Source of the DNA: a virus
Virus genome (UHGV): UHGV-2091278
Reading direction: 5' to 3' (one strand)
Length of the DNA: 17,075 nt
Part shown: piece by piece, positions 1,722-17,075 of the stretch
How positions within the stretch are numbered: the stretch's first letter is position 1
How the letters are laid out: every line of letters begins with the position of its first letter
Made by a program: the position numbers and the translations under genes
Notes under the pieces: model-generated
Told to the model about the DNA's origin: nothing
What the model saw: the letters and a program-made list of their open reading frames with translations, nothing else
Database searches by the model: none

Positions 1722-2349
1722 GGCATTCACCAGCGTGGATGAAACCTTTGAGGCTATCCGCGACAGCCTGAATCAGCAGGCCATCAATAACATCGCCAGA
1801 AAGCTGGCACAGGATTTACGTCGCGCCCAGCAGGCACGTATCCGATCACAAAAAGCGCCGGACGGGACCGAATGGACACCACGCAGACGCCGCGTAACCC
1901 GGATACAGGAGCGCATTCGCTTTATCTGGAATAACGAAGCACGCACGCTGAAAAACTGGCATCACGACACGGGGAAATACGGGCGAACCATTACCGGGTG
2001 GGATGAGGATAAAAACAATATCCGCACGTTTTACCGGGATGACATCGACCGTTTTCTGGAAATACGCACCCGGCGCATCAACCAGGACAGCACAAAGCGC
2101 GTCCCCATGTTCGTAAAACTGCGCACCGCCCGCTACCTGAAAGCCCGTGCAGATGCCTCCGGTGTGACGGTGGGTTACAGCGGCGTGGCCGCACGTATTG
2201 CACGCGTTCATCAGTTCGGTGAGCGCGATCAGGTTGCGCCGGGCATTTTCACCGATTACCCGGTACGTGAGCTGTTGGGTATCAGCCAGGCAGATGAGCG
2301 CCTGATTTATAACACGGTGCTGGGCCGGATTGCGGAGGCTGTACGGTGA
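1714..2349 (+). CDS. S: P2 gpS-like tail completion / virion morphogenesis protein
   Basis: Open frame 1705-2349 immediately after R and before V; ATG at 1714 overlaps the R stop (ATGGATAA). GTG at 1705 is an alternative start. Size and position fit the phage virion morphogenesis (gpS) family. Confidence 0.6.
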   Translation: MDKAFTSVDETFEAIRDSLNQQAINNIARKLAQDLRRAQQARIRSQKAPDGTEWTPRRRRVTRIQERIRFIWNNEARTLKNWHHDTGKYGRTITGWDEDKNNIRTFYRDDIDRFLEIRTRRINQDSTKRVPMFVKLRTARYLKARADASGVTVGYSGVAARIARVHQFGERDQVAPGIFTDYPVRELLGISQADERLIYNTVLGRIAEAVR

Positions 2350-2927
2350 GCGCAGAACTCATGCGACTGCTGAGCAACATCATCCGCACCGGGATCATCT
2401 CTGAAGTTGATGAGAAGTCCTGGCGCGTGCGCGTTCGCAGCGGCGAACTGGAAACAGGCTGGTTGCGCTGGAACACCACGCGCGCGGGAGCCTTCAATGT
2501 GTGGCTGCCGCCATCACCAGGCGAACAGGTGGTAATTGCCTGCATTGGCGGCAACCCGGAAACCGCCATGATAATTGGCAGCCTGTGGAGTGATGCCAGT
2601 CCGGCCCCCGGCAAAAGCCTGAAAGAAATCGTGGTCAGCGCGCCGGATGGCGCGGTGTTCCGCTACGACGCAGACGCTGGCGCACTGAGCGCCAGCGGCA
2701 TGAAAACAGCCACCCTGCAGGCATCCGTCAGCGTGACACTGGATACGCCCGTCGTGGAATGCACAAACCTTCTGAGAACAGCGACGCTTGACGTCACAAA
2801 AGGGGGAAAGATGAGCGGCAATATCACGCACAGCGGCGGCAACTTCACCTCAAACGGCATCACAGTGCATACGCATAAACACGGTGGTGTGAAAGGCGGC
2901 AGCGATTCGACAGGAGGCCCGCAGTGA
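2346..2927 (+). CDS. V: P2 gpV-like baseplate central spike protein
   Basis: 193 aa; ...IRTGII...E, WLRW, HTHKHGG... pattern as in P2 gpV; GTG start overlaps S stop (GTGA). ATG at 2361 is an alternative start. Confidence 0.85.
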   Translation: MSAELMRLLSNIIRTGIISEVDEKSWRVRVRSGELETGWLRWNTTRAGAFNVWLPPSPGEQVVIACIGGNPETAMIIGSLWSDASPAPGKSLKEIVVSAPDGAVFRYDADAGALSASGMKTATLQASVSVTLDTPVVECTNLLRTATLDVTKGGKMSGNITHSGGNFTSNGITVHTHKHGGVKGGSDSTGGPQ

Positions 2928-3274
2928 CAACCCGCTACACAGGAATGAATCCGGACGGGACGGGAAACCTGAATGATATGGAGCACCTGAAACAGTCAGC
3001 CAGGGACATCCTGACCACCCCGCTGGCCAGCCGGGTTATGCGACGGGAATATGGCAGCCTTGTACCTGATTTGATTGACGAACCCATGAATAACACCACG
3101 CGTCTGCAATGCATGAGTGCTGCCGTGATTGCGCTGACACGATGGGAACCCCGCATTGCCCTGGACGCCATCGACGTTGTCTGGAAAGCGGGAGGCCGCG
3201 CCGGGGTGACGCTGTCGGGCACTGTCATGCAGACCATGCAGAATGTTGAGTTAACCATCACGCTGAGGGAGTAA
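2924..3274 (+). CDS. W: P2 gpW-like baseplate wedge protein (gp25/lysozyme-like fold family)
   Basis: 116 aa; MTTRYTGMN...RVMRREYGS...WEPR closely parallels P2 gpW (MTARYLGMN...RVMRRDYGS...WEPR). GTG start overlaps V stop, SD AGGAGG upstream. Confidence 0.85.
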   Translation: MTTRYTGMNPDGTGNLNDMEHLKQSARDILTTPLASRVMRREYGSLVPDLIDEPMNNTTRLQCMSAAVIALTRWEPRIALDAIDVVWKAGGRAGVTLSGTVMQTMQNVELTITLRE

Positions 3275-3277
3275 ATC

Positions 3278-4174
3278 ATGCCTGCTGTTGACCTTTCCCA
3301 GTTACCGGAACCCGCCATCATCGCGAAGCCTGATTTTGAGGCAATTCTGGCTGACACAAAGGCCATGATGATTGCGTCCTATCCTGCCGAACAGCGTGAA
3401 GCCGTCTCCGCCGCGCTGGAGCTGGAATCGGAACCCCTGAACGTTATCGCCCAGACAACAGCGTTTCGTGAAATGCTGTTACGCCAGCGGGTCAATGAGG
3501 GTGCACGCGCCTGCATGTTAAGCCACAGCGCCGGGACAGACCTGGACAACCTCGCGGGCAATATGAACACAAAGCGCCTGGTTATCACTCCGGCAACGGA
3601 TACCACCGACGCGGTGATGGAAAGCGACACATCGCTGAGACTGCGGGCGCAACGGGCGTATGACGGTCTGAGTGTTGCTGGCCCGTCAGGCGCATACGAG
3701 TATTTTGCACGCAGCGCCAGCGGTCTGGTACGCGACGCGCGAGCCATCAGCCCGTCTCCGGCCAACGTGACGGTTTCCATCCTGTCCACTGAAGGCGACG
3801 GCACAGCAACGGAGGCGTTGCTTAATACCGTTCGCGCCGTTCTGAATGCAGAGGATACCCGCCCGGTGGCCGACCGCCTGACCGTACAGAGCGCCAGAAT
3901 CGTGACATGGCGGCTGAATGCAAAACTGTACTTTTACCCCGGCCCGGAATCCGAACCTATTCTGGCCGCGGCTGAATCGTCGTTCAGGAAGTGGCTGGCT
4001 GAGCAGGGGCTTATCGGTCAGGACGTGGCGTTGTCCGCCATTGCTGCCGCACTGCATGTGCACGGTGTGCAACGCGTGGAGATAATCGAACCCACACAGA
4101 ATATGGCCATCAGCGACATACAGGCGGCGCGCTGTGAGTCATTCACCATCAGCGAAGGTGGACGCAATGAGTAA
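3278..4174 (+). CDS. J: P2 gpJ-like baseplate protein
   Basis: 298 aa; MP..DL.QLP...SEPL...RPVADR.TVQSA...LYFYPGPESEPI... is collinear with P2 gpJ; SD GAGGGA 7 nt upstream. Confidence 0.85.
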   Translation: MPAVDLSQLPEPAIIAKPDFEAILADTKAMMIASYPAEQREAVSAALELESEPLNVIAQTTAFREMLLRQRVNEGARACMLSHSAGTDLDNLAGNMNTKRLVITPATDTTDAVMESDTSLRLRAQRAYDGLSVAGPSGAYEYFARSASGLVRDARAISPSPANVTVSILSTEGDGTATEALLNTVRAVLNAEDTRPVADRLTVQSARIVTWRLNAKLYFYPGPESEPILAAAESSFRKWLAEQGLIGQDVALSAIAAALHVHGVQRVEIIEPTQNMAISDIQAARCESFTISEGGRNE

Positions 4175-4697
4175 TTCGTTGTTACCACCATCAGCCAGCA
4201 ATTTCATGCGTTGTGCCGAAGCCGTCGGAACACGCATTACAGACATTCCGGTAGACCTCAACACGCTGTGGTCGCCGGACACCTGCCCGGTGCATCTGCT
4301 GCCTTATCTCGCCTGGGCGTTTTCCGTTGACCGCTGGGATCGCAACTGGCCGGAAGAGACAAAGCGACAGGTGATTCGTGATGCATGGCTGATACACCGA
4401 CACAAAGGGACCATCAGCGCACTGCGCAGGGCCATTGAGCCGCTGGGATACCTCATTCGCGTGTCTGAGTGGTGGGAGTTCGGCGGAGAACCGGGAACAT
4501 TTACCGTTGAAGTCGGCACGCTGGACAGTGGCGTGACGGAGGAAATGTATCTGGAAATGGAGCGGTTGATTGCTGATGCCCGCCCGGTCAGCCGCCACAT
4601 GACAGGGCTGAATATCATTCAGGAGATCCCGGGGGATATTTTCGCGGCGGCAGCAACTTACGACGGTGAAGTCATTACCATTTATCCGGACGATTAA
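4167..4697 (+). CDS. I: P2 gpI-like baseplate protein
   Basis: Track ORF starts at 4134, but homology to P2 gpI begins at MSNSLLPP (ATG 4167, overlapping the J stop). ...[25 protein letters not shown]...HKGTI...[14 protein letters not shown]... matches gpI. Confidence 0.85.
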
Positions 4698-4699
4698 GC

Positions 4700-6847
4700 A
4701 TGAGTACCACAACACGAAAATTTAAAACCATTATCACTGATACTGGTGCCAAAAAATTAGCTCAGGCTGCCGCGCCAGATGGTAATCCTGTCCGCCTGAC
4801 TCATATGGCCGTGGGCGACGGTGGCGGCACGTTGCCCACACCAGACAGTAAGCAGATCCGTCTGGTGCATGAGGTGTGGCGACATACTGTTAATCGCGTC
4901 ATCCTGGACGCAACACATCAGAACCGCATTATTGCGGAGCTGGTTATTCCTCCTGAAACGGGCGGATTCTGGATCCGGGAAATTGGTGTATTTGATGAGC
5001 ACGGCGATTTGATCGCGGTGGGCAATACTGCCGAAAGTTACAAACCAACCGTTGCCGAAGGATCCGGACGTGCACAAACATTTCGCACCATTCTGACCGT
5101 ATCCAGCACTGCCACCGTGGCGCTTACCGTGGATAACACCATGGTAATGGCCACAGTGGATTACGTGAATGACAAACTGAAAGAACATGAACAGTCACGA
5201 CGTCACCCGGACGCCTCGCTGACCGCAAAAGGCTTTGTTCAACTCAGTAGCGACACTAACAGCGTGTCTGAAACGCAGGCTGCAACGCCGAAAGCAGTAA
5301 AGGCCGCGTATGATCTTGCTAACGGGAAATATACTGCGCAGGATGCCACCACAGCGCGAAAAGGCCTTGTCCAGCTCAGTAGCGCCACCAACAGCGATTC
5401 TGAAACGCTGGCGGCAACACCAATGGCGGTAAAGGCAGCATATGACCTTGCTAACGGGAAATATACTGCGCAGGATGCCACCACAGCGCGGAAAGGCCTT
5501 GTCCAGCTCAGTAGCGCCACCAACAGCACGTCTGAAGCACTGGCCGCAACACCGAAAGCGGTAAAGACAGCATATGACCTTGCTAACGGGAAATATACCG
5601 CTCAGGACGCTACGACAGCACAAAAAGGGATTGTCCAGCTAAGCAGCGCGACTAACAGCACATCTGAAACGCTTGCCGCGACACCGAAAGCAGTGAAAGC
5701 AGCTAATGACAATGCGAATGGTCGGGTACCTTCTGCCCGTAAGGTGAATGGTAAGGCGCTTTCAGCGGATATTACACTGACGCCGAAAGATATTGGTACG
5801 CTTAACTCAACAACTATGTCATTTAGCGGTGGTGCTGGTTGGTTCAAATTAGCAACGGTAACCATGCCGCAGGCGAGTTCTGTTGTTTCAATTACGTTGA
5901 TTGGTGGGGCTGGATATAACGTCGGTTCACCTCAACAGGCAGGTATATCTGAACTTGTTTTGCGTGCAGGTAATGGTAATCCGAAGGGGATTACTGGTGC
6001 TTTATGGCAGCGCACATCGACAGGGTTTACAAATTTTGCCTGGGTCAATACATCTGGTGATACTTACGATATTTACGTTGCAATCGGAAATTATGCGACT
6101 GGTGTAAATATTCAATGGGATTATACCAGTAATGCCAGCGTAACGATTCATACGTCACCAGCATATTCTGCTAATAAGCCGGAAGGGTTAACGGACGGTA
6201 CAGTTTATTCACTCTATACGCCATCAGAGCAGTTTTATCCGCCTGGCGCACCAATCCCGTGGCCATCGGATACCGTTCCGTCTGGTTATGCCCTGATGCA
6301 GGGGCAGACTTTTGACAAATCTGCCTACCCGAAACTTGCAGTCGCTTATCCGTCAGGCGTGATCCCTGATATGCGTGGCTGGACGATTAAGGGCAAGCCC
6401 GCCAGTGGTCGTGCCGTATTGTCTCAGGAACAGGACGGCATTAAATCGCACACCCACAGCGCCAGTGCATCCAGTACGGATTTGGGGACGAAAACCACAT
6501 CGTCGTTTGATTACGGTACTAAAACGACCAGTTCATTTGATTACGGCACAAAAACCACAAATAGCGCAGGAGCTCATTCACACAATATACCTGTTGGTCA
6601 CACTGGCGCGGGGAATGGTGTATCAGCCGGTTATAACGCTGCGTTAGGTACTGGTACCACGTCGAGCGCAGGAGGGCATGCTCACAATGTATATATCGGT
6701 GCCCATAACCACACTATCGGCATTGGTGCTCATGCCCATTCTGTCATTATTGGTCCCCACGGACACACCATCACCGTTAATGCTACGGGGAACGCAGAAA
6801 ACACCGTAAAAAACATCGCATTTAACTATATTGTGAGGCTTGCATAA
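4700..6847 (+). CDS. H: P2 gpH-like tail fibre protein, conserved N-terminal attachment domain, variable repeat-rich shaft and His-rich C-terminal tip
   Basis: 715 aa; N-terminus [23 protein letters not shown]... is typical of P2/Mu/P1-type fibres; internal 44-aa repeats; C-terminal HxH motifs and ...[11 protein letters not shown] terminus. Confidence 0.85.
5225..5720. repeat. Four tandem near-identical 132-bp (44-codon) repeats inside the tail fibre gene
   Basis: Repeat unit KG(F/L/I)[35 protein letters not shown](R/Q); the GGC/GGG phase points 5231, 5363, 5495 and 5627 are exactly 132 nt apart. Confidence 0.85.
6485..6565. repeat. Short 30-bp tandem repeat ([10 protein letters not shown] x ~3) in the fibre distal region
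   Basis: [10 protein letters not shown] repeated consecutively in the translation; nucleotide period 30. Confidence 0.6.
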
Positions 6848-7425
6848 TGACATTCAGAATGAGTGAACAATCACGGACCATAAAAATTTATAATCTACTG
6901 ACCGGAACCAATGAGTTTATTGGTGAAGGTGATGCATACATTCCACCTCATACAGGTCTGCCTGCAAACAGTACCGATATTGCACCACCAGATATTCCGG
7001 CTGGCTTCGTGGCTGTTTTCAACAGTGATGAGGCATCGTGGCATCTCGTTGAAGACCATCGGGGTAAAACTGTTTATGACGTGGCATCAGGGGACGCGTT
7101 ATTTATTTCTGAACTCGGTCCGTTACCGGAAAATGTTACCTGGTTGTCGCCGGATGGAGAGTGTCAGAAGTGGAACGGCACATCCTGGGTGAAAGATGCA
7201 GAAGCAGAAAAACTGTTTCGGGTAAGGGAGGCAGAAGAAACAAAAAACAGCCTGATGCAGGTAGCCAGTGAGCATATTGCGCCACTTCAGGATGCCGTAG
7301 ATTTGGATATTGCGACGGAGGAAGAGGCATCGTTACTGGCTGCATGGAAGACATATCGGGTATTGTTGAATCGTGTTGATACAACAGTAGCAGCGGATGT
7401 TGAGTGGCCAGTCGCCCCACAATAA
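6847..7425 (+). CDS. G: Tail fibre assembly chaperone (P2 gpG / Tfa-like)
   Basis: 192 aa; ATG overlaps H stop (TAATG); protein resembles Tfa/gpG chaperones; sits directly after the fibre gene. Confidence 0.8.
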
Positions 7426-7432
7426 AAAGAAA

Positions 7433-7460
7433 AAGCCATCGACAGAAATATCGATGGCTT
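7433..7460. terminator. Bidirectional intrinsic terminator between convergent G and the acetyltransferase gene
   Basis: Perfect 10-bp stem AAGCCATCGA / TCGATGGCTT with 8-nt loop, A-run upstream (AATAAAAAGAAAA) and TTT downstream. Confidence 0.55.
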
Positions 7461-7468
7461 TATGTACT

Positions 7469-8074
7469 CTATTTATACAATACAACACCACTCTTTTTAG
7501 TTATATATGTGCAGTTTGATGGTATATCTTTATTTATAAAAGACATTGCACCTATTTTTACATTATCCCCAATTTTACGTGATAATCCAATGATGCAACA
7601 ATTAGCTCCGATATCAACGTTACTACCAATTTTCACTCTTGAACCAGGCATGTCACCATCTATCTGCCCAATGGTAGTATTCTGTCGTAATACCAGATTT
7701 TCACCCGCATCAACAGCAAAATGAACAACAATTCCAGCATGATGGGGAATTGTTAACCCTTTTCCAATATTTGCTCCTAATCCTATTTCACAACCAAATT
7801 TGTTAATTATTTTACTGTTTAACTTTTTGGCTGCTTTCTTATGTAATTTATTACCATTAATATACATTTCGTTAGCCAACCGCCACCAGAAAAGGAAATT
7901 CCGGTTACGCTGCTTTTTCTCTCTTAAAAGCCTCCAGATATCCATACGTTTCCGCCGAATTACTTCATGTTTCCAGAAGTTTTTTAAATTAGTAGAGTTC
8001 CCAAATAAAACAAAGTGAATTGCCATTAAGTAGGACAGCACGAAAATCTCCTTAATTATTATTTCAGACCACAC
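7469..8074 (-). CDS. Hexapeptide-repeat (left-handed beta-helix) acyltransferase, serine O-acetyltransferase (CysE/WcaB-like) family; A+T-rich cargo (moron) gene
   Basis: 201 aa; C-terminal ...IGLGANIGKGLTIPHHAGIVV...IGQIDGDMPGSRVKIGSNVDIGANCCIIG...IGDNVKIGAMSFI... is the classic [LIV]G hexapeptide pattern and the DG..G.R.P.IG motif of serine acetyltransferases. Visibly lower GC than flanks. Start uncertain (GTG 8074, ATG 8026 or ATG 7945). Confidence 0.65.
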   Translation of the reverse strand: MWSEIIIKEIFVLSYLMAIHFVLFGNSTNLKNFWKHEVIRRKRMDIWRLLREKKQRNRNFLFWWRLANEMYINGNKLHKKAAKKLNSKIINKFGCEIGLGANIGKGLTIPHHAGIVVHFAVDAGENLVLRQNTTIGQIDGDMPGSRVKIGSNVDIGANCCIIGLSRKIGDNVKIGAMSFINKDIPSNCTYITKKSGVVLYK

Positions 8075-8154
8075 ATGTTATAAGGTTAAGAGATTATAAA
8101 ATCCTGTTATTTGTTATTCAAAAACAATTTTCTGAGAAGGACATACAACAGCAA

Positions 8155-8187
8155 GTCGCCAGTCACCTTCATCAGGAAATTGGCGAC
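8155..8187 (-). terminator. Hairpin downstream of U (possible end of the FI-U transcript)
   Basis: 7-bp inverted repeat GTCGCCA...TGGCGAC with 19-nt loop; no clear U-tract, so weak. Confidence 0.2.
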
Positions 8188-8197
8188 ATACGTTAAA

Positions 8198-8692
8198 TCA
8201 GAGCAGCCCCTTAACTGAGCTGGCCGCGCTGTTAAGGGATGATGTCACCTTATCTTTGAAGCCGGACAACATATCGCTGAACGATGAGGATTGCAGGCGC
8301 TCCCGCAAATCCTCATCACAGCGTTCAAGAGTCAGTGAAAATTCTATCTTTTTCGCCTTACCGTAGCGATCAAACTCGGAGCGGGTCGTATTCGTTTCAG
8401 TCAGTACATACATGCCGTAAATCTGCCCGACGCCATCAATCAGAGGCCAGGGGCATCCTGTATATGCCTGCGTGGTCAACAACGACAGCGACACTTCGCC
8501 ACCTGTAATCTCAGGATAAAGAACACCCGAAAGAACGATGCGATCATCACCTGCACCGATATACTGCCAGCTTGCCGAACGGTTAACGCGTTCATTTTTC
8601 ACATGTCGCCAGCTTTTGTTTTGCTGTAACTGCTGATGCGGCAACGTGCGCAACTCAAAAACAAACATGCCGTAGATCATCATCATGGCCAT
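8198..8692 (-). CDS. U: P2 gpU-like tail protein
   Basis: 164 aa; ...LSGVLYPEITGGEVSLSLL...WPLIDG.G.IYGMYV... parallels P2 gpU; SD GAGGAG overlaps the T stop. Confidence 0.85.
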   Translation of the reverse strand: MAMMMIYGMFVFELRTLPHQQLQQNKSWRHVKNERVNRSASWQYIGAGDDRIVLSGVLYPEITGGEVSLSLLTTQAYTGCPWPLIDGVGQIYGMYVLTETNTTRSEFDRYGKAKKIEFSLTLERCDEDLRERLQSSSFSDMLSGFKDKVTSSLNSAASSVKGLL

Positions 8693-8698
8693 GACTCC

Positions 8699-11515
8699 TC
8701 AATCTTTATCGTAAAAACTGCCACGTCCGGCACGGTCGCGTCGTTCCAATTCTGCCCTGACCATTTCACCGACCAGTTTCGCCAGTTCGCGGGGATTCTG
8801 CGTAACAACGTTATGCAGATGAACATGAATTTCACCGCCAAATCCGGAGGCAACAGGCTCCCGGTTACGGGAAGTTACAGGAACTGATGCCACTGGAGAT
8901 CGTATGGCCTCCGCCACCGGGCGGGAGCTGGCCGCAACAACAGGGACCAGCGCCGGAGGCAGCGGAGCCGGGACCACGGGTGTGATATTAATTGCGGGGG
9001 CAGGCTTACTGACCTGCGCAATCTTCCGCTCCTGCCACTCCCCACGAACAGCAAGTGCGCGGGGCAGGTTTTTAAAGACAATATCGCCGGGGCCAATGCG
9101 TTTTTTCGTCTCCTCAACCAGCTTACCTGTGTTATCAGCAATTTTGCTGAGTCTGCGCAGCGTACCGGTATTGCTGTCTGTGAGCGGTTTATTGTCTTTG
9201 GAGTTATCACCTCCGGTGCCATTGCCATTTTCCACAGGCTTCGGCGGATTGATTTTCGCCAGGTCCCCCTGAAGTAAGGCAACCTTGTCCTGAAGAATGG
9301 CCGCACGCTGTGCGTCTTCGATTTTCTTGCGCGCCCTTTCCGCTTCATCCGGAAGGACGCCAAGTTTTTCAAGTATCCACGCCAGCGTATCCAGTAGCAT
9401 TTTTGCAGGTGTCAGAACAAGTTGTAACGCACCGCCAAGAACGTTACCGAATATCTCGCCAGCACTGGTACATTTATCCAGCGTTTCCTTGCTGGACTCC
9501 ATCGGTGACAACAGCGATTTAAACCAGTTAAACACCTGGCTGATCCCGCTTCCGATTGCGTCAAAAACAGGACCAAACCGTTCAAAGGTTTCGCGCAACG
9601 GGGTCAGCCTTTCCATAATCCCGCTGAACACCCCGGCAAAAAATGCCCTGATGGGATCCCAGTATTTCCAGATGAGAACGGCAGCTCCGGCAAGCGCAGC
9701 CACGATAAGACCGACCGGACTGAACAACGCCCCGATAGCGCCCCCCAGTAACGAAACGGAACCCGTCACCATTCCCCATAGTGCTGGCAGGAGTCTGACA
9801 GCATTCATTGAACCGGTCAGGAGGGAAAAGCCAAGACGCAGTTTTGCCAGCGGGCCAGCAAGCACACCAATAGCCAGCGACAACGAGCCAACCGTTGCAG
9901 TCATTGCCAGCAACGCACCGCCTGCTATCAGTAGCTGGCGCGTCAGTACCGGATGAGCCTGCGCCAGCGAGGTGATTTTTTCAAGCACCCGCGTGAGCCA
10001 CTGCGTGACAGAACGCAGCGGACCGTCAACCAGATCACTGATGCGAATACGAAGACCTTCCCATGCGCTGTCGAGATTTTTCAGGTCCCCATCAAGATTA
10101 TCGGCCATTACTTTTGCAACGCGATCGGCCTCTCCCCTTGCCCCCTGCAATTCTCTGGTCAGTTTTTGCAGCTCTCCTGAACCAGCCGCCGCAACAAGCG
10201 TCTGCAAACCAACGAACGCCTCTTCTCCGGCGATGTCCTTGAAGAAGGAGACCTGGTCCACCTGTCCGTATTTTTGTGTCGCCTTATAGAGATCAAGCAG
10301 CACATCCTCCATCGGGCGCATTTTGCCTCTGGCGTCAGCAACTGACACCCCCAGCTCTTTCAGCGCATCAGCCGCAGCTTTTGGCGGTGATGCAAGGCGG
10401 GACAGACTTGCGCGCATGGCCGTACCAGCATCGCTTCCACGAAGACCATTATTGGCAAGCATCCCGGCCATGGCTGCCGCTTCTTCAAGACTGATACCAA
10501 GTTTTGCGGCAACCGGACCGGTATACTTCATGGTTTCGCCCAGCGCGCGTAAATCAGTATTGGTCCGGGTGAATGCCGCTGTCAGCGTATCGCCAACCCG
10601 GTCCATTTGATCGGCTGTCAGGTTGAACTGTGTGAGGATATTGGAGCCTATATCCGCCGTCTCGCCGAGTTCGACGCCACCTGCCAGCGCCATATTAAGA
10701 ACACCGGGCAATGCGGCCTGAATGGCCTGCGGAGTAAAACCAGCCATTGCCAGAAAGCTCTGCCCACTGGCGGCATCACTCGCAGTAAACTGTGTTTCAG
10801 AACCAAGTTTTAACGCCTGCTCACGCAGCGCCTTAAACTGCGGGCTGTTTTTGTCGATTCGCGTCAGTGCCTGAACGCGGGACATCTCTTTGCCGAACCC
10901 GATCGCAGGCTGCAAAAAACGTCCGGCAGCATAGCCGCCAGCCGCTGCAGCACCAATTGCCAGCGCACCACCTGTTTTCAGTTTTCCCACGGTTTCCTGC
11001 GCGCGCGAATACCGCTCACGCGCCCGCGTTACACGCGCAAGCGCCTGCCGTTCGCGTTCAAGTTGGTTGTTGTACTGTTCGGTGCGTCTGATGGCCTGCT
11101 GGATGGTGTTATCGCTGCCTGTCAGGGAAATGCCGTGGCGTTTCAGCTCTCCGCCAAGTTCCCGCATTTTCTGAATTTCCCGTGTGCGCGATTCATTCAG
11201 GCGTTCAAGCCGGGTGCTTAACTGCTGCATCAGCTTTTGTTGTTTTTCGCTGAGAACTGTACCCGTGCGTTGTAACTGATTAAGTGCGTTAAGCTGGCGT
11301 CGTGCTTTCACGATGCCAGCATCCGCTTTACTGACAGCGTCGCGGGCGCGCTCAAATGAACGCGCCTGACGCTCGAGATTTTTGATCGCCCCCTGCGTTC
11401 GCTGAATGGAGTCACCAAACTGCCCCATCAGGCGGCGGGCGTTTTCGGCAGGCCGGGTCAGCCTGTCAACGGCGCTGAAAGCGACCCGGATGTCAAGAGT
11501 CTTCATTATCTGCAT
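8699..11515 (-). CDS. T: Tail tape measure protein (P2 gpT-like)
   Basis: Very long ORF (up to 947 aa from GTG 11542); coiled-coil-rich N-terminal region, Gly/Ala-rich hydrophobic middle segments, position between E/E' and U. Start most likely ATG 11515 or 11506, overlapping the E' stop. Confidence 0.85.
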   Translation of the reverse strand: MQIMKTLDIRVAFSAVDRLTRPAENARRLMGQFGDSIQRTQGAIKNLERQARSFERARDAVSKADAGIVKARRQLNALNQLQRTGTVLSEKQQKLMQQLSTRLERLNESRTREIQKMRELGGELKRHGISLTGSDNTIQQAIRRTEQYNNQLERERQALARVTRARERYSRAQETVGKLKTGGALAIGAAAAGGYAAGRFLQPAIGFGKEMSRVQALTRIDKNSPQFKALREQALKLGSETQFTASDAASGQSFLAMAGFTPQAIQAALPGVLNMALAGGVELGETADIGSNILTQFNLTADQMDRVGDTLTAAFTRTNTDLRALGETMKYTGPVAAKLGISLEEAAAMAGMLANNGLRGSDAGTAMRASLSRLASPPKAAADALKELGVSVADARGKMRPMEDVLLDLYKATQKYGQVDQVSFFKDIAGEEAFVGLQTLVAAAGSGELQKLTRELQGARGEADRVAKVMADNLDGDLKNLDSAWEGLRIRISDLVDGPLRSVTQWLTRVLEKITSLAQAHPVLTRQLLIAGGALLAMTATVGSLSLAIGVLAGPLAKLRLGFSLLTGSMNAVRLLPALWGMVTGSVSLLGGAIGALFSPVGLIVAALAGAAVLIWKYWDPIRAFFAGVFSGIMERLTPLRETFERFGPVFDAIGSGISQVFNWFKSLLSPMESSKETLDKCTSAGEIFGNVLGGALQLVLTPAKMLLDTLAWILEKLGVLPDEAERARKKIEDAQRAAILQDKVALLQGDLAKINPPKPVENGNGTGGDNSKDNKPLTDSNTGTLRRLSKIADNTGKLVEETKKRIGPGDIVFKNLPRALAVRGEWQERKIAQVSKPAPAINITPVVPAPLPPALVPVVAASSRPVAEAIRSPVASVPVTSRNREPVASGFGGEIHVHLHNVVTQNPRELAKLVGEMVRAELERRDRAGRGSFYDKD

Positions 11516-11761
11516 TCCCGCTGCGAAGTGCCGCCCGCTCACGCCAGCTAACCACTTCGCCGGGCGTCATCATGAAGATTTCGGCGGGCGACCAGTTAAA
11601 AATGGCGGCAATATCCGCCACCAGATCTTCGATGTGCTCAAAGCACACCAGGGTGATTACGCTGCCGTCTCCTGCACGCTCTTCGCGCCAGAGTCTGGCT
11701 CGCTCATAAAATTTACAGCCACAGCGCACAACTGAATAAAATCGCGTGACGACATTTTTTT
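11493..11761 (-). CDS. E': E' segment: -1 frame extension producing the E+E' fusion tail assembly chaperone
   Basis: The -1 frame opens exactly at the A7 run (plus-strand T7, 11755-11761) inside E and stays open to TGA at 11493-11495; the arrangement mirrors P2 E/E+E' and lambda G/GT. Confidence 0.7.
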
Positions 11762-12031
11762 AATCATCACTTCATCCAGTCGTGGCGAGGTCACGCGAGG
11801 CAACAGCGTGAACATGGTATCCGCTTTCAGATTCAGCACATCAGACAGCGACAGACCACGCAGGGATCCCGCCTGCTCAATAGCCCCGGTGATCTCCACA
11901 TATGTGATTTTTTCGGCACCACGCTCAATTGGCCGGGAAAGTTTTACACCACGTTCGACAGCCATATCCTCACCTGCCGTCACATCATCCGCTACGGTGT
12001 TATTCCGGGTTTCAGTATCGATATCTTTCAT
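11657..12031 (-). CDS. E: P2 gpE-like tail assembly chaperone (zero-frame product)
   Basis: 124 aa; located between tube and tape measure genes; SD AGGAG 7 nt upstream of ATG; contains the frameshift site. Confidence 0.8.
   Translation of the reverse strand: MKDIDTETRNNTVADDVTAGEDMAVERGVKLSRPIERGAEKITYVEITGAIEQAGSLRGLSLSDVLNLKADTMFTLLPRVTSPRLDEVMIKKMSSRDFIQLCAVAVNFMSEPDSGAKSVQETAA
11755..11761 (-). other. Putative programmed -1 ribosomal frameshift slippery site (A AAA AAA on the coding strand)
   Basis: A7 homopolymer at E codons ~90-92 (..VMIKKM..); the -1 frame has stop codons immediately upstream and opens at this run. Confidence 0.55.
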
Positions 12032-12086
12032 CAGTTGTCTCCTTTTCAGTCAGAGGCGACGCACTGCGCCGCCTGCATATTACTTA

Positions 12087-12599
12087 TCAGCCAAGCCCAA
12101 GCGCGGAACGAATGCGGTCAGGCACAATGTCCTTGCCGTCCTTCCGGTAGATGTGGTTCAACAGGTCGATTTCCCACAGCGGGCGATCGTTAACGCTAAG
12201 CTTGTAGTAGGTGTTTTTGACAGCGTAAGTGTGTGATGTGGCTTCGCCCTGTTTGGCCTCCCCCATATCAATTTCCGTCACACGCCCGCGCATCTCGATT
12301 TCATACAGATCGCTTTCTGCATCGGTGTAATATTCACCCGCAAAACGCAGCAGCGTGCCGTCAATCGTGCCGCCATACTTAAGGAACAGTGCACGAACAG
12401 CTCCCCCCATGACAAAGCTCGCATCAAGCGCGGAGTCGTCCAGACCGAGATCAATACTTACTGCCCCCATCATGCCACCACCACGATAGCTGTCGGTTTT
12501 GCGCGTCAGTTTGGGCGGCGTGACGGATGTCACTTTACCCACTTCGTTTTCACCATCCACAAACAGCGTAAAAAAGCGAAGATGTTTTGGTACAGCCAT
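12087..12599 (-). CDS. FII: P2 gpFII-like tail tube protein
   Basis: 170 aa; ...TPPKLTRKTDSYRGGGM.G...DLGLDD... matches P2 FII (LPKLTRKLENYRGAGM...DLGLDD); start ATG overlaps the FI stop (TGATG). Confidence 0.9.
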   Translation of the reverse strand: MAVPKHLRFFTLFVDGENEVGKVTSVTPPKLTRKTDSYRGGGMMGAVSIDLGLDDSALDASFVMGGAVRALFLKYGGTIDGTLLRFAGEYYTDAESDLYEIEMRGRVTEIDMGEAKQGEATSHTYAVKNTYYKLSVNDRPLWEIDLLNHIYRKDGKDIVPDRIRSALGLG

Positions 12600-13783
12600 C
12601 AGGCACCTCCCAGCACCGCAAATGCGGGACCAAAGAATTCATCAGTAAACGTCTGGTAAAGCTCCATGTCTTCCAGCGGGGGAACGGGCGTATATTTGTA
12701 GCGAATACGCACACGCCCCTGACGTAAATCCGTGGTGCCGTTATCCACCACGTCATACCAGCACTCCGCGCCAATCAGTTTCCCGGCAGTAACCAGCGAA
12801 TCCAGTTTTGCCCTGATGGCGCTGATAACATCCTTCACGTTCGCAGGCGTCAGTGGACTGTCGATGGTTTCAAACTGCGCTTCCGCAATTGAATCAGCCA
12901 GCACCTGTGCGGTTCGGGTATACACCTCAAAGATGTAGGCGTTCGTTTCCGGTGTGCGGTTGCCCCAGAAGCGGAACCCGTTGCGACGAATAATGGTCGT
13001 GATTTCTTTGTTGTTGAGGCTGTTGGCATCACTGTCTTCGGCCTGTAATGACCAGAACACATGCCTCGACATCCCCAGCACATTTTTAACCGGAACGTTG
13101 GACAGTGATTTGTGCCACCCCTGCTCATGGTCAATGTACGCACGAAGGCCGCACGCATAGGCAGGCGCGGGGAACGTTTCGTTTTTGCCACTTTTCGGGT
13201 TGTAGGCGATGAAGTCCGGCCATAAGAGCATCACCTCACGTTCGTTGAATTTCTGGCGGTAGGTAATCGCCTCAGCCATCGTGTTACAGCCGTGACATGA
13301 GGCATACACAAACGCGCGCAGTTTACCTGCAATCACGCACAGGGATTTTGTTACAGCCTCCGTGTCCAGCTCCGGCGCAGCCAGAATACGCGGACGGTAT
13401 CCGATGCTTTCATCCTGCTCTGCAACAAGCAGCGCATACATCCCCGTATAGCTGCCGTCATCCTCAGAACCACCGATAACCAGTTGATCCTGCGTCTTTC
13501 CGTCTTCTTCTTTGTGTTCAGCCACGCGAACGACGATCACCTTTGTGCTCACCTGGTCTGCGATGGCCTTAAGCGCACGATAAAGCGTCCCCGTTGTTCC
13601 GCATTTTCCCAGCACGTCATTGACGCGGGTCAGCAGTGTGGGCTTGTTCAGCGGGAACAGCTTCGCGTCCGCATCATCCGCCGTTGCCACGATACCGATA
13701 ACGCTGGAATCAACATCGTTAATCGCTGTTACCAGGTCGGTATTTTCCGTAACACGGGCACCATGAAAACGAGTTTCACTCAT
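12599..13783 (-). CDS. FI: P2 gpFI-like contractile tail sheath protein
   Basis: 394 aa; ...FPLNKP...KLRAF.Y....C.T..E...YRQ.F..RE.M..WPDF...EQGWHK.LSNV...FRFWGNRT...YTRTAQV..D...YTPVPPLE... is diagnostic of the P2 sheath family. Confidence 0.9.
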   Translation of the reverse strand: MSETRFHGARVTENTDLVTAINDVDSSVIGIVATADDADAKLFPLNKPTLLTRVNDVLGKCGTTGTLYRALKAIADQVSTKVIVVRVAEHKEEDGKTQDQLVIGGSEDDGSYTGMYALLVAEQDESIGYRPRILAAPELDTEAVTKSLCVIAGKLRAFVYASCHGCNTMAEAITYRQKFNEREVMLLWPDFIAYNPKSGKNETFPAPAYACGLRAYIDHEQGWHKSLSNVPVKNVLGMSRHVFWSLQAEDSDANSLNNKEITTIIRRNGFRFWGNRTPETNAYIFEVYTRTAQVLADSIAEAQFETIDSPLTPANVKDVISAIRAKLDSLVTAGKLIGAECWYDVVDNGTTDLRQGRVRIRYKYTPVPPLEDMELYQTFTDEFFGPAFAVLGGA

Positions 13784-13940
13784 AGCTTCAGCCCCTTGTA
13801 TCCGTTAAATGATTCGGCAACAATCATCACCCACCACGCGCGTAATCTCACCCCTGCGCTATTCTCCCGCCACGGCGACAACAAAAAGCAGTACCCCCCT
13901 CCGCACGCACATGCGACCATGCCGTACAGGGAGGGAACAG
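13784..13940. promoter_or_regulatory. Divergent intergenic region expected to hold the late promoters for the FI operon (-) and D (+)
   Basis: 157-bp non-coding gap between divergently oriented start codons; no specific Ogr-box could be confidently recognised by eye. Confidence 0.3.
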
Positions 13941-15050
13941 ATGACCGACACCACCATGCAATTGCTCAGTCAGGGCACAGACCCCGTGAAAATGCCGGAT
14001 TTTGATATTCTCGCCGAGGGTAAAACGCTGTCCGGCGTGGCAGAACGCCTGATGAGCCTGTCACTGACCGACAACCGGGGATTTGAGGCGGACCAGCTCA
14101 CCATCACGCTGGATGATGCCGATGGCCAGTTGCAGCTACCGCCACGGGGCGCGCGCCTGACGGTTCTCATTGGCTGGAAAGGGGAACCGCTGACAGAAAA
14201 AGGCACTTACATTGTTGATGAAATCGCTCACGAAGGACCGCCGGACAGGCTGACTGTTTCAGCCAGAAGCGCAGATTTTCGGGATGAATTTAATGTTAAA
14301 CGTGAGGCGTCCTGGCATGATGTGACCGTTGAACGTGTGGTATCCGCCATCGCTCATCGGTACGGCCTGAAACCGCAAATCAGCGAAATGCTGATGGATA
14401 TCGAAATCGACCACGCCGACCAGACTGAAGAAAGCGACATGTCCTTCCTTACGCGCATGGCGGAAATGCTGGGCGCAATCACCACGGTAAAAAGCGGTAA
14501 TCTGTTATTCATCATGCCCGGCGGTGGCGTGAACGCACAGGGCCAGCCGTTGCCATCGTTCGCCATCACACGCAGCAGCGGCGATCGCCATCAGTTCCGC
14601 ATTGCTGACCGCGAGGCGTATACGGGGGTACGCGCTTACTGGCTTGATCTTAATTACGGGAAAAAGAAAAAAGTCAGCGTGAAACGCCGCAAACCGCCAA
14701 AACCCAAAAAGGAGAAAAGCAGCAGCCGTGAAGGTGATTATATGGAAGGCGCGGAAGGCAATGTGTTTGTGTTACGCAAGACTTATCAGAACGAGCAGGC
14801 AGCAAGACGCGCAGCGGCGGCAAAGTGGCAGCAGCTACAACGCGGAGCCGCATCATTCTCCATCACACTGGCACGCGGACGCGCAGAACTCTACCCCGAA
14901 ATGCATGGCACGGTAACAGGATTTAAAAGCGAGATTGATAATCAGGACTGGATTATTGCAAAATCCGAGCACACCATTGATAACAGCGGCTTTACCACGC
15001 AGCTTGAGCTTGAAGCAAAAATTCCGGAATGGATAGCAGAAACAGAATGA
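13941..15050 (+). CDS. D: P2 gpD-like tail protein
   Basis: Track ORF starts at 13809, but homology to P2 gpD begins at MTDTTMQLLSQGTDPV...; ATG 13941 has GGGAGGGAA SD upstream. ...DNRGF.ADQLT.TLDDADG...YIVDEIAH.G.PD.LTV.ARSADFR..., the basic KK-rich stretch and ...SGFTT.LELE... are all gpD-like. Confidence 0.85.
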   Translation: MTDTTMQLLSQGTDPVKMPDFDILAEGKTLSGVAERLMSLSLTDNRGFEADQLTITLDDADGQLQLPPRGARLTVLIGWKGEPLTEKGTYIVDEIAHEGPPDRLTVSARSADFRDEFNVKREASWHDVTVERVVSAIAHRYGLKPQISEMLMDIEIDHADQTEESDMSFLTRMAEMLGAITTVKSGNLLFIMPGGGVNAQGQPLPSFAITRSSGDRHQFRIADREAYTGVRAYWLDLNYGKKKKVSVKRRKPPKPKKEKSSSREGDYMEGAEGNVFVLRKTYQNEQAARRAAAAKWQQLQRGAASFSITLARGRAELYPEMHGTVTGFKSEIDNQDWIIAKSEHTIDNSGFTTQLELEAKIPEWIAETE

Positions 15051-15106
15051 GTAAATTAGATGCATTAGCTCAGTCATGAGTTTACTGATTACGTACGGCA
15101 CAGAAG

Positions 15107-15141
15107 CAAACCTGATAGTTTGCTCTGTGCCAGAAACGGAC
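15107..15141. terminator. Long imperfect inverted repeat between convergent D and the DUF2971-like gene
   Basis: GGCACAGAAGCAAA ... TTTGCTCTGTGCC (about 13 bp stem, one bulge, 8-nt loop); no adjacent U-tract, so function uncertain. Confidence 0.25.
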
Positions 15142-15172
15142 ATTGCCGACATCATAATCGACACAAATTACA

Positions 15173-16036
15173 TTAATCACCTATGTGATTACGTTCTATA
15201 TATCTTACAATCTTCTCTAAAGATTCAACCCCCCACCTCTGCATAGCATGCGGGGATTCTGTATATTCATAATCTTCTATGGTGAGATCCCATGTACTTT
15301 TCTTGAATTCACACTGATATAATCGCACAGTCTTGTTTAAAACCAACCCTTCTAACACACTGCTTTTCTTAATGATTTTGTCAATGTCTTTATTGTTAAT
15401 CCCAATGTAGATAGCTGTTACCGAACTTAAATCAGTTATCTTGTCAATTAAAATATTTTCTTGCTTTTGTAATAGCCCCACTCGCTTTATTATTCTAACT
15501 TCTTCTTCATATTTCCAATGCAATGATTTAGTAAGCAATAATTTACTAATTACATCAGCGCTATAAATGTTTTCTTGACTGATTTTTAGTTTGCTTTTTA
15601 TTCGACTCTCTAAATAATTAATGTCACCTTTCTGTGCCGTAATTAGGCATTTTTCTTCATCATCAAACCCTGCCCTTTCTGTGTCAATTGCTACAACAAA
15701 CCCCTGATGTTTATCAGCATAATGTGACCACATCAGTACATTGAGAGGATTTTTAGAAAGGCATAAGCAGGCAACATTTTGATTGATCTCCCCCCTCATA
15801 GCTAATGGTTCAAGCGATTCACCATCTAATGAAAGTTCATAGCCATAGCTTTCAAAAGGATCATTAAACTCACTATATGGAGTGAATTTTATAGAGATGT
15901 AACCATCTTTAAAAAATCGTTCCAATGATGTCTTATCTATATATTTATACAGAATCATAATATATTCAGAATTAATTATAGGTGTTATCAGTATACAGTA
16001 CTTCAACAAGTAGATGTAAAGATCCCATTTAAACAT
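15173..16036 (-). CDS. DUF2971-family-like protein of unknown function; A+T-rich cargo gene inserted between D and ogr
   Basis: 287 aa; ...ILYKYIDKTSLERFF.DGYI..KFTPYSEFNDPFES... and ...LMWSHYADKHQGFVVAID... resemble the conserved N-terminal motifs I associate with DUF2971. Strong SD GAGGAGGA directly before ATG 16036; visibly low GC. Confidence 0.6.
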   Translation of the reverse strand: MFKWDLYIYLLKYCILITPIINSEYIMILYKYIDKTSLERFFKDGYISIKFTPYSEFNDPFESYGYELSLDGESLEPLAMRGEINQNVACLCLSKNPLNVLMWSHYADKHQGFVVAIDTERAGFDDEEKCLITAQKGDINYLESRIKSKLKISQENIYSADVISKLLLTKSLHWKYEEEVRIIKRVGLLQKQENILIDKITDLSSVTAIYIGINNKDIDKIIKKSSVLEGLVLNKTVRLYQCEFKKSTWDLTIEDYEYTESPHAMQRWGVESLEKIVRYIERNHIGD

Positions 16037-16153
16037 TCCTCCTCAATACGCGGATTAAACAAATTAAAGCATCTTACTCAAAATGGACCATCAGTTGGAT
16101 TTAGAGCCAACACAACCTAGAATAGCGGCAGCACCACGTTAAGGGAGGTCGCT

Positions 16154-16414
16154 ATGTTCCGTTGTCCGCTTTGTGGCGCATCTGCCCGTATCCGCACCAG
16201 TCGTCCGGAAAATGATTCAAACACCGTGCGACAAAAGTATTACCAGTGCAACAACCTGGAATGCGGCGTATGCTTCTCAACACTGGAAGCTTTCCATAAA
16301 TTCACATCGAAGCACGCCTCCGGCGTTCACTCTTCAGAAGGTATCCCGTGGCATGAGCTGCCAGCTTCGCACAGGGGAAACAATCAGATGAGTTTGCCTT
16401 TACCTCAGAATTAA
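16154..16414 (+). CDS. ogr: Ogr/Delta-family zinc-finger late transcription activator
   Basis: MFRCPLCGASARIRTSR...QKYYQCNNLECGVCFSTLE... matches P2 Ogr (MFHCPLCQHAAHARTSR...ERYHQCQNVNCSATF) with a Cys-x2-Cys...Cys-x4-Cys arrangement; SD AAGGGAGG upstream. Confidence 0.8.
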   Translation: MFRCPLCGASARIRTSRPENDSNTVRQKYYQCNNLECGVCFSTLEAFHKFTSKHASGVHSSEGIPWHELPASHRGNNQMSLPLPQN

Positions 16415-16423
16415 CAGGCAGAA

Positions 16424-16452
16424 TTGCCGGAGTAACAAAAAAGCGATAGATT
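16424..16452 (+). promoter_or_regulatory. Putative sigma70-like promoter for the hok-like transcript
   Basis: TTGCCG - 17 bp - TAGATT, about 150 nt upstream of the hok-like ATG; weak match, by eye only. Confidence 0.25.
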
Positions 16453-16474
16453 ACGCGCGGGTGCCTTTCGGCTG

Positions 16475-16738
16475 ATGGTCGGAGGGAATACCCGAAGGCC
16501 AGATGTGGAAAGGCCCCGGAAAACATCTCTGTTTAACCGAGGCCCTAACCGCATTACCTTGACAAGTGAAAGGTTAGCGCCTCTCCGGAAAAGGAGCAAG
16601 TGCTATGTCGCAAAAATCGCTTACGGCCATCACGTTCTGCGTGACGGCAATCCTCATCATCTGGATGCTGCACGGTTCGCTGTGCGAAATACGGATGAGC
16701 TTCTGGGGAGCGGAGTTTGCGGCGTTCTTACAGTGTAA
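16475..16738 (+). CDS. mok-like overlapping reading frame (possible translational coupling ORF for the hok-like toxin)
   Basis: 87-codon ORF in a different frame that starts upstream of and overlaps almost all of the hok-like ORF, as mok does in hok/sok loci. Confidence 0.3.
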   Translation: MVGGNTRRPDVERPRKTSLFNRGPNRITLTSERLAPLRKRSKCYVAKIAYGHHVLRDGNPHHLDAARFAVRNTDELLGSGVCGVLTV

Positions 16739-16745
16739 GCAGTAA
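16605..16745 (+). CDS. Hok/Gef-family type I toxin (small membrane peptide)
   Basis: 46-aa ORF MSQKSLTAITFCVTAILIIWMLHGSLCEIRMSFWGAEFAAFLQCKQ, too short for the ORF track. Hydrophobic TM segment then SLCEIR...E.AAF, the Hok signature (Hok: ...RKSLCEIRYRDGHREVAAF...). SD AAGGAG 8 nt upstream. Confidence 0.7.
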   Translation: MSQKSLTAITFCVTAILIIWMLHGSLCEIRMSFWGAEFAAFLQCKQ

Positions 16746-17050: not shown

Positions 17051-17075
17051 TTACTCGTCTTTGGGCGAAGCGTTT
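17051..17075 (-). CDS. Extreme 3' end of an unidentified minus-strand gene continuing beyond the window
   Basis: Minus-strand frame ...NASPKDE followed by TAA (plus-strand TTA at 17051-17053) and then the 17012-17039 terminator; only 8 codons visible. Confidence 0.25.

Follow-up and report, generated by a model that had tools for sequence, protein, structure and literature searches.

In phage P2 the F operon reads pF-FI-FII-E-E'-T-U-D-ogr, with D, which overlaps U, closing the FI operon ahead of ogr, and in the deposited records of both P2 and Fels-2 the genes FI-FII-E-T-U-D lie on one strand. Late promoters of P2 that depend on Ogr have the consensus TGT-N12-ACA (PMC3931495), and in P2 a site of this type stands ~55 bp upstream of the start. 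A second arrangement is found in the annotated records of Escherichia phages P88 (Xuanwuvirus, NC_026014) and 500465-2 (Gemsvirus), and in the close relatives of P88: R, S, V, W, J, I, H, and G occupy one strand, U, T, E', E, FII, and FI the other, and D and ogr the first strand again. P88 is reported to be inducible or plaque-forming in one source (PMC5285337), as is Citrobacter phage PhiSM in another (PMC6456863), and these reports support the view that the flipped order yields a working virion. A survey of the literature on P88, Citrobacter PhiSM, the SEN phages, and Xenorhabdus xnp1, together with a keyword search, returned nothing on an inversion or on a divergent FI/D promoter; since no paper describing the order was found, its status as known rests on deposited, ICTV-classified genomes.

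The DNA analyzed here, a stretch of 17,075 bases that we refer to as the window, differs by three mismatches over its whole length from the prophage adjoining ihfA in Escherichia coli strain 300444, and is the late-gene half of an ordinary P88-like (Peduoviridae) E. coli prophage. On its plus strand, R (1254-1721) and S (1705-2349) lie just upstream of V, which opens a run of baseplate and tail-fibre genes, V, W, J, I, H, and G (2346-7425), assigned from the open reading frame map, PHROG matches to tail fibre and tail fibre assembly families, and the PGAP names in the 300444 prophage. A terminator-like hairpin with a 13-bp stem (7432-7461) separates G from a convergent low-GC cargo gene on the minus strand (7469-8041; GC 0.35; Pfam Hexapep), which encodes a hexapeptide-repeat acetyltransferase of the CysE/WcaB/EpsC type, although all of its NCBIfam matches fall under the curated cut-offs. 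A promoter scan placed a sigma-70-like promoter for this gene at 8121-8093 on the minus strand.

The open reading frame map and the PHROG and Pfam assignments placed U, T, E/E', FII, and FI on the minus strand (8198-13783) and V-W-J-I-H-G and D on the plus strand. Reading against the coordinates, the block begins with the tail sheath gene FI (12599-13783; phrog_23, 1e-125; Pfam sheath domains) and continues with the tail tube gene FII (12087-12599; Pfam Phage_tube, 2e-45), gpE (11657-12031; phrog_103) with its -1 frame extension E' (to 11493, the two together spanning 11493-12031), and the tape measure gene T (8699-11542; phrog_28, 7e-220), the start of which is uncertain, PGAP placing it at 11506; its last gene is U (8198-8692; Pfam Phage_P2_GpU, 3e-38; phrog_76). 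On the plus strand, D (13941-15050; phrog_52, 8e-167; Pfam Phage_GPD) encodes the tail spike or hub protein annotated as "late control D", which is 52% identical to D of P2 and of Fels-2. Between D and ogr lies a second low-GC cargo gene, on the minus strand, encoding a DUF2971 protein (15173-15958; GC 0.32-0.36; Pfam DUF2971); ogr itself (16154-16414, plus strand; Pfam Ogr_Delta, 5e-14; named as such by PGAP) encodes an Ogr/Delta-family zinc-finger late activator.

The window thus carries a P2-like (Peduoviridae) tail module, with homologues of FI, FII, E, T, U, and D and the internal order FI-FII-E-T-U, and both the genes and the order from FI to U are those of the P2 F operon, as is the succession of D and ogr. 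What distinguishes it from P2 is that the FI...U segment is inverted and D forms a separate, divergent unit; a collinear F operon, with D directly after U on a strand shared with FI and V-G, is not present. These observations bear out an earlier note on this DNA, which had described the tail module as not collinear with P2 and the block from sheath to U as inverted relative to the baseplate genes and D; the order does differ from that of P2, 186-type phages, and Fels-2. Fels-2 had been considered as a possible sharer of the flipped order and was ruled out as such, being collinear with P2.

The same note had FI and D diverging across a gap of 157 bp (13784-13940), a length that follows from placing the start of D at the ATG at 13941. 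That ATG is preceded by the Shine-Dalgarno sequence GGGAGGG (13929-13935, plus strand), an in-frame ATG upstream at 13809 is without a ribosome-binding site, and homology to D begins at about residue 45 of the longer open reading frame that starts at 13809; the ATG at 13941 is most likely the start of D, and the divergent arrangement and the length of the gap both stand.

Positions 7000-16500 were compared with deposited phages by megablast, and a more sensitive search was used for distant relatives. The tail block was recovered at 91-97% nucleotide identity in Escherichia phages 500465-2, P88, P884B11, PhiR44_2, and Chuche and in Citrobacter phage PhiSM, the best tail-region matches being 500465-2 (96.7%) and P88 (92.8%), over 76-77% of the query and with the window representing the late half only. 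The annotated P88 and 500465-2 records show exactly the order of the window. The FI-D gap of P88 and its close relatives is likewise 157 bp long and nearly identical to that of the window, including a dyad described below, although the base just before this dyad differs (A in the window, G in P88). P88 also differs from the window at three other places: its G|U junction holds an invertible fibre cassette and a DNA invertase where the window has the acetyltransferase gene, and it has neither the DUF2971 gene between D and ogr nor the DUF6645 gene that precedes R in the window. The more sensitive search extended the divergent FI|D arrangement, at 65-68% nucleotide identity, to Klebsiella phage 3LV2017 (Reginaelenavirus) and Salmonella phage SEN5 (Senquatrovirus), which share with the window the flipped order and a gap of ~155 bp with the same hexamer spacing, but in which G runs almost directly into U without cargo.

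The distribution of the order was examined by scanning one genome per GTDB species with an alignment of D proteins, which yielded 80 D loci, and by classifying the gene order at each with tblastn. U-T-E-FII-FI lay opposite to D in 59 of the 80 loci, and the remaining 21 were collinear. The flipped loci come from more than 20 genera of Enterobacterales, namely Salmonella, Edwardsiella, Serratia, Kluyvera, Erwinia, Enterobacter, Citrobacter, Mixta, Pantoea, Kosakonia, Pectobacterium, Brenneria, Klebsiella, Raoultella, Yokenella, Xenorhabdus, Photorhabdus, Providencia, Morganella, Hafnia, Yersinia, Rouxiella, and Symbiopectobacterium. Identity to the D protein of the window was at least 61% in every flipped locus and at most 54% in every collinear one, and the FI-D gaps of the flipped loci, at 122-195 bp, bracket the 157 bp of the window. 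Burkholderia phage KS5 and Ralstonia phage RsoM1USA, both phages of Betaproteobacteria, are collinear, and they were used to root trees of D and of FI built by simple neighbour-joining without support values. In both trees the flipped loci form one clade that includes the window and has no collinear member, and the collinear order is accordingly read as ancestral and the flipped order as one old derived event. The pattern of sequence relationships points to a single old inversion.

Within E. coli, the FI|D junction of the window (13300-14400, at a coverage of at least 80%) was found in 1355 of 5426 complete genomes and the P2-type U-D junction in 1571 of the same 5426. To represent the alternative orientation we built a synthetic junction in which the U gene of this lineage is joined directly to its D gene; at a coverage of at least 80% it was found in none of the 1420 E. 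coli genomes that carry these genes. The possibility raised in the earlier note that the window is misassembled and its true orientation collinear is excluded by these two counts, the flipped junction recurring in independent complete genomes and the collinear one in none, and the near identity of the window to the 300444 prophage likewise speaks against an artefact, to which we assign a negligible probability.

The flipped order is therefore ordinary, being the fixed and ancient gene order of the P88-like branch, carried by roughly one complete E. coli genome in four and already on record. The condition under which the note would have considered its own observation unremarkable, a standard order in a known lineage, describes the P88-like Peduoviridae, and the depiction of a noteworthy or recent rearrangement does not survive the finding that P88 and at least four ICTV genera, 59 of 80 loci, and 1355 of 5426 E. 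coli genomes share it. As a discovery the arrangement matters little, since E. coli genomes carry it about as often as the classical P2 order; for prophage annotators and synteny-based classifiers, it means that P2 collinearity is not the sole normal order in Peduoviridae.

The cargo genes had been given a causal part in the earlier note, which held that both junctions of the inverted block coincide with cargo insertions and read the order as the outcome of recombination at those sites. The first statement holds for the G|U junction (7426-8197), which contains the acetyltransferase gene, and fails for the FI|D junction, where there is none; the DUF2971 gene is at neither junction, its place between D and ogr being beyond the flipped block. 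A recent, strain-specific inversion by recombination at cargo-insertion sites would agree with the low-GC gene at G|U, yet the order is common to four phage genera and to the 59 loci, spread over more than 20 bacterial genera, that form one clade, most relatives have no cargo gene at G|U, and none of the 80 related loci has the DUF2971 gene. A G homologue was the closest matched gene ahead of U in 27 of the 59 flipped loci, often ~60-160 bp from the stop codon of U, a DNA invertase adjoined U in 8, and the remainder had other fibre genes or nothing recognizable. With relatives mostly free of cargo at G|U, FI|D cargo-free, and the DUF2971 gene outside the block, cargo is neither cause nor marker of the inversion, and a recent event of this kind is very unlikely. 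The acetyltransferase gene is a local insertion at G|U, and the cargo genes came later, as variable insertions with no connection to the inversion. In a PADLOC search, the DUF2971 protein matched the candidate defence family PDC-S31 (5e-27), and neither the acetyltransferase nor the DUF6645 protein had a match.

The invertase adjoining U in P88, in 500465-2, and in those eight loci could suggest that the block is a programmed invertible segment switched by a Gin/Cin-type enzyme. The window, however, has no invertase gene, and a search for inverted repeats across 7300-14100 returned only short, scattered, chance-like pairs, none of which joins the two junctions. The opposite orientation was absent from all 1420 genomes, and the alternative genes for tail fibre and fibre assembly in P88 adjoin the invertase on its far side with respect to FI-U. 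With no invertase, no paired repeats, and a single orientation seen, the block does not resemble a Gin/Cin/Hin-type segment, and a programmed switch can hardly be credited at all.

Under the reading of one old inversion, the segment from pF through FI-FII-E/E'-T-U would have inverted once, long ago, while D and ogr stayed in place, and the flipped order would then have become fixed across the whole P88-like branch. Such an inversion would have set the promoter region of FI back to back with D, which, as the note had pointed out, must then have a promoter of its own. A conserved candidate for it is predicted in the FI-D gap. A sigma-70 consensus scan of this gap found no promoter, a result that fits activator dependence and proves nothing, and a search for exact TGT-N12-ACA found none in any intergenic region of the window. 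We aligned the 59 distinct FI-D gaps of the flipped loci, and conservation was poor apart from three blocks, a dyad and two flanking hexamers. The dyad in the window, TCTCCCGCCACGGCGACA (13863-13880, centre 13871/13872), matches 5 of the 6 bases of the TGT-N12-ACA consensus, reading TCT-N12-ACA with the mismatch in the FI-side half-site; owing to this TCT, the exact-consensus search missed the dyad and the alignment revealed it. In 3LV2017 and SEN5, unlike the window, the dyad is a perfect TGT-N12-ACA.

At the aligned position, T[GC]T-N12-A[CG]A was present in 57 of the 59 gaps, 36 of them with exact TGT-N12-ACA, and the ACA half-site that faces D was kept in 55 of the 57. A hexamer of the form nAnnnT stood exactly 34 nt from the half-site on the FI side in 55 of the 57 gaps and at the same offset on the D side in 51, while at other offsets within 28-40 nt it occurred in at most 11; the 59 gaps are phylogenetically related, so that these counts overstate the number of independent observations, though outside these blocks the gap is poorly conserved. 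In the window the corresponding predicted -10 hexamers, placed by the conserved offset and by the geometry of P2 pP and pO, respectively, are GATGAT for FI (13823-13828, minus strand) and GACCAT for D (13915-13920, plus strand), each 34 nt from the dyad.

The closest known counterpart is the pP/pO region of P2, for which the P2 record annotates a single activator site serving both promoters, with the dyad centre 55.5 bp from both annotated starts and hexamers at the same 34-nt offset. The two regions are alike in having one dyad midway between two divergent late units with the same spacing, and the FI-D gap would follow the general design of P2 late promoters; they differ in the genes served, terminase/portal and capsid at pP/pO against the sheath operon and D at the FI-D gap, and in that starts and activator site are annotated in P2 and predicted here. 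Applying the pP/pO geometry to the window gives predicted starts at ~13816 for FI and ~13927 for D.

From this analogy we infer a single Ogr-type site that drives FI...U in one direction and D in the other. The 157-bp gap would be a bidirectional late promoter, in which one dyad-symmetric site for an Ogr-family activator lies ~56 bp upstream of two divergent starts, each with a -10 hexamer and no -35 element, and FI...U and D would still be co-activated late in infection, as the single P2 site serves pP and pO. The ligand of the dyad is presumed to be the Ogr-family protein encoded at 16154-16414. Taken together, one old inversion fixed in the P88-like branch, with the FI-D gap as a bidirectional Ogr-type late promoter, is the reading that we consider very probable.

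The conserved dyad might instead serve the FI operon only, with D expressed from a constitutive or early promoter independent of Ogr. The imperfect TCT...ACA dyad of the window and the slightly lower conservation of the D-side hexamers (51 against 55 of 57) lean this way. It is nevertheless the well-conserved ACA half-site that faces D, the offset of the D-side hexamer equals both that on the FI side and that at P2 pO, and the gap contains no sigma-70 consensus promoter, so that an Ogr-independent D promoter seems improbable.

If the bidirectional promoter is accepted, it offers a reading of why the flipped order was fixed, which we hold with somewhat more confidence than doubt. A palindromic Ogr-type site would act in both directions, and once it was flipped next to D, that gene would have needed only a -10 hexamer 34 nt away to remain under late control; all late genes of the branch would then run from two shared operators, P|O and FI|D. 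The intergenic sequence of the 300444 prophage contains TCT-N12-ACA at two sites only, one in the P-O gap and one in the FI-D gap, each followed by ACAAAA(A)GC. On the same reading, TCT-N12-ACA-ACAAAA(A)GC would be the form that both sites reached by drift in the E. coli sub-lineage, a hint that the specificity of Ogr co-evolved with them. Only the conserved design of this putative bidirectional late promoter, a variation on P2 pP/pO, is mildly new. The FI|D gap is conserved and provides a compact testable case of one palindromic activator site serving two divergent late operons, and the exact starts predicted for it would be useful for engineering P88-type phages or tailocins.

Within the flipped block, the chaperone pair E/E' is kept together with a predicted -1 frameshift. 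A candidate slippery heptamer, A_AAT_TTT (11714-11708, minus strand), stands in the correct frame for a -1 shift between E and E', and the predicted fusion aligns with E+E' of P2 through the shift site (E=9e-29). Klebsiella 3LV2017 and Salmonella SEN5 retain the heptamer of P2, T_TTT_TTG, in place of the A_AAT_TTT of the window.

The low-GC gene for a hexapeptide acetyltransferase at window 7469-8041 (minus strand) is accompanied by a sigma-70-like promoter (8093-8121) and a terminator hairpin with a 13-bp stem (7432-7461), and its product is CysE/WcaB/EpsC-like, falling under every curated cut-off. In two phages with far larger records, JL22 (99.6 kb) and vB_EcoM-Ro157c2YLVW (80.7 kb), the gene and the end of the adjacent fibre-assembly gene are present with 91-93% identity. 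Their recurrence at the sequence level suggests that the fibre-plus-acetyltransferase unit is a mobile cassette, possibly with a role in surface-polysaccharide modification.

Further cargo lies between D and the activator gene ogr, where a DUF2971 gene of low GC content (0.32-0.36) occupies window 15173-15958 on the minus strand; its product matches PDC-S31, a candidate anti-phage family in PADLOC (5e-27). None of the 80 related loci carries a DUF2971 gene. In phage 500465-2 the same slot is instead filled by another hypothetical gene, which suggests that cargo occasionally enters at D|ogr. Read-through from D into ogr could be blocked by convergent transcription at the DUF2971 gene. The lysC-R interval of the late operon houses a plus-strand gene for a 626-aa DUF6645 protein (L087:6051-7931 in the near-identical prophage locus of E. 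coli 300444, with only the 3' part in the window, at 1-1230), whereas P88 has just a 137-bp gap at this position. The GC content of this gene is phage-typical, and comparison of its product against PADLOC and NCBIfam returned no match. At the prophage end, a hok/gef-family toxin gene (16605-16745, plus strand) was located, and the host gene ihfA starts at the right edge of the window (17051-17075); the prophage therefore adjoins ihfA-pheT.

Both late operator sites of the window's prophage (window 13863-13880, in the FI-D gap, and L087:1149-1166) bear TCT in the FI-side or P-side half, and TCT replaces TGT in the FI-side half of 21 of the 57 related dyads. The opposite half-site keeps ACA, with ACAAAA(A)GC following it, and the TCT half-site may reflect a changed half-site preference of the sub-lineage's Ogr protein. 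Among the P88-type phages of E. coli (P88 and the window, 11708-11714, minus strand), the slippery heptamer for E/E' reads A_AAT_TTT; the homologous site of P2, Klebsiella 3LV2017, and Salmonella SEN5 reads T_TTT_TTG.

The D reading frame is unbroken in the window, and its annotated start differs among records (window 13809-14250; L087:20642-20951): the 500465-2 record begins at the ATG equivalent to 13809 (413 aa), the P88 record at the equivalent of 13941, and PGAP in E. coli 300444 at 14250 (266 aa), with a spurious partial ORF called upstream. A D gene 95-98% identical to that of the window resides in a P88-type prophage on a contig of 226 kb (NZ_JBQPOM010000071.1, locus L008) whose label, Vagococcus sp. 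WN89Y, is that of a Firmicute; this assembly probably contains enterobacterial DNA contamination or is mislabelled. Two related E. coli phages, 520873 and 503458 (NC_049344.1 and NC_049341.1), have IS100 (IS21-family) insertions in their tail sheath / tape measure region and, although deposited as phages, are thus probably defective prophages.
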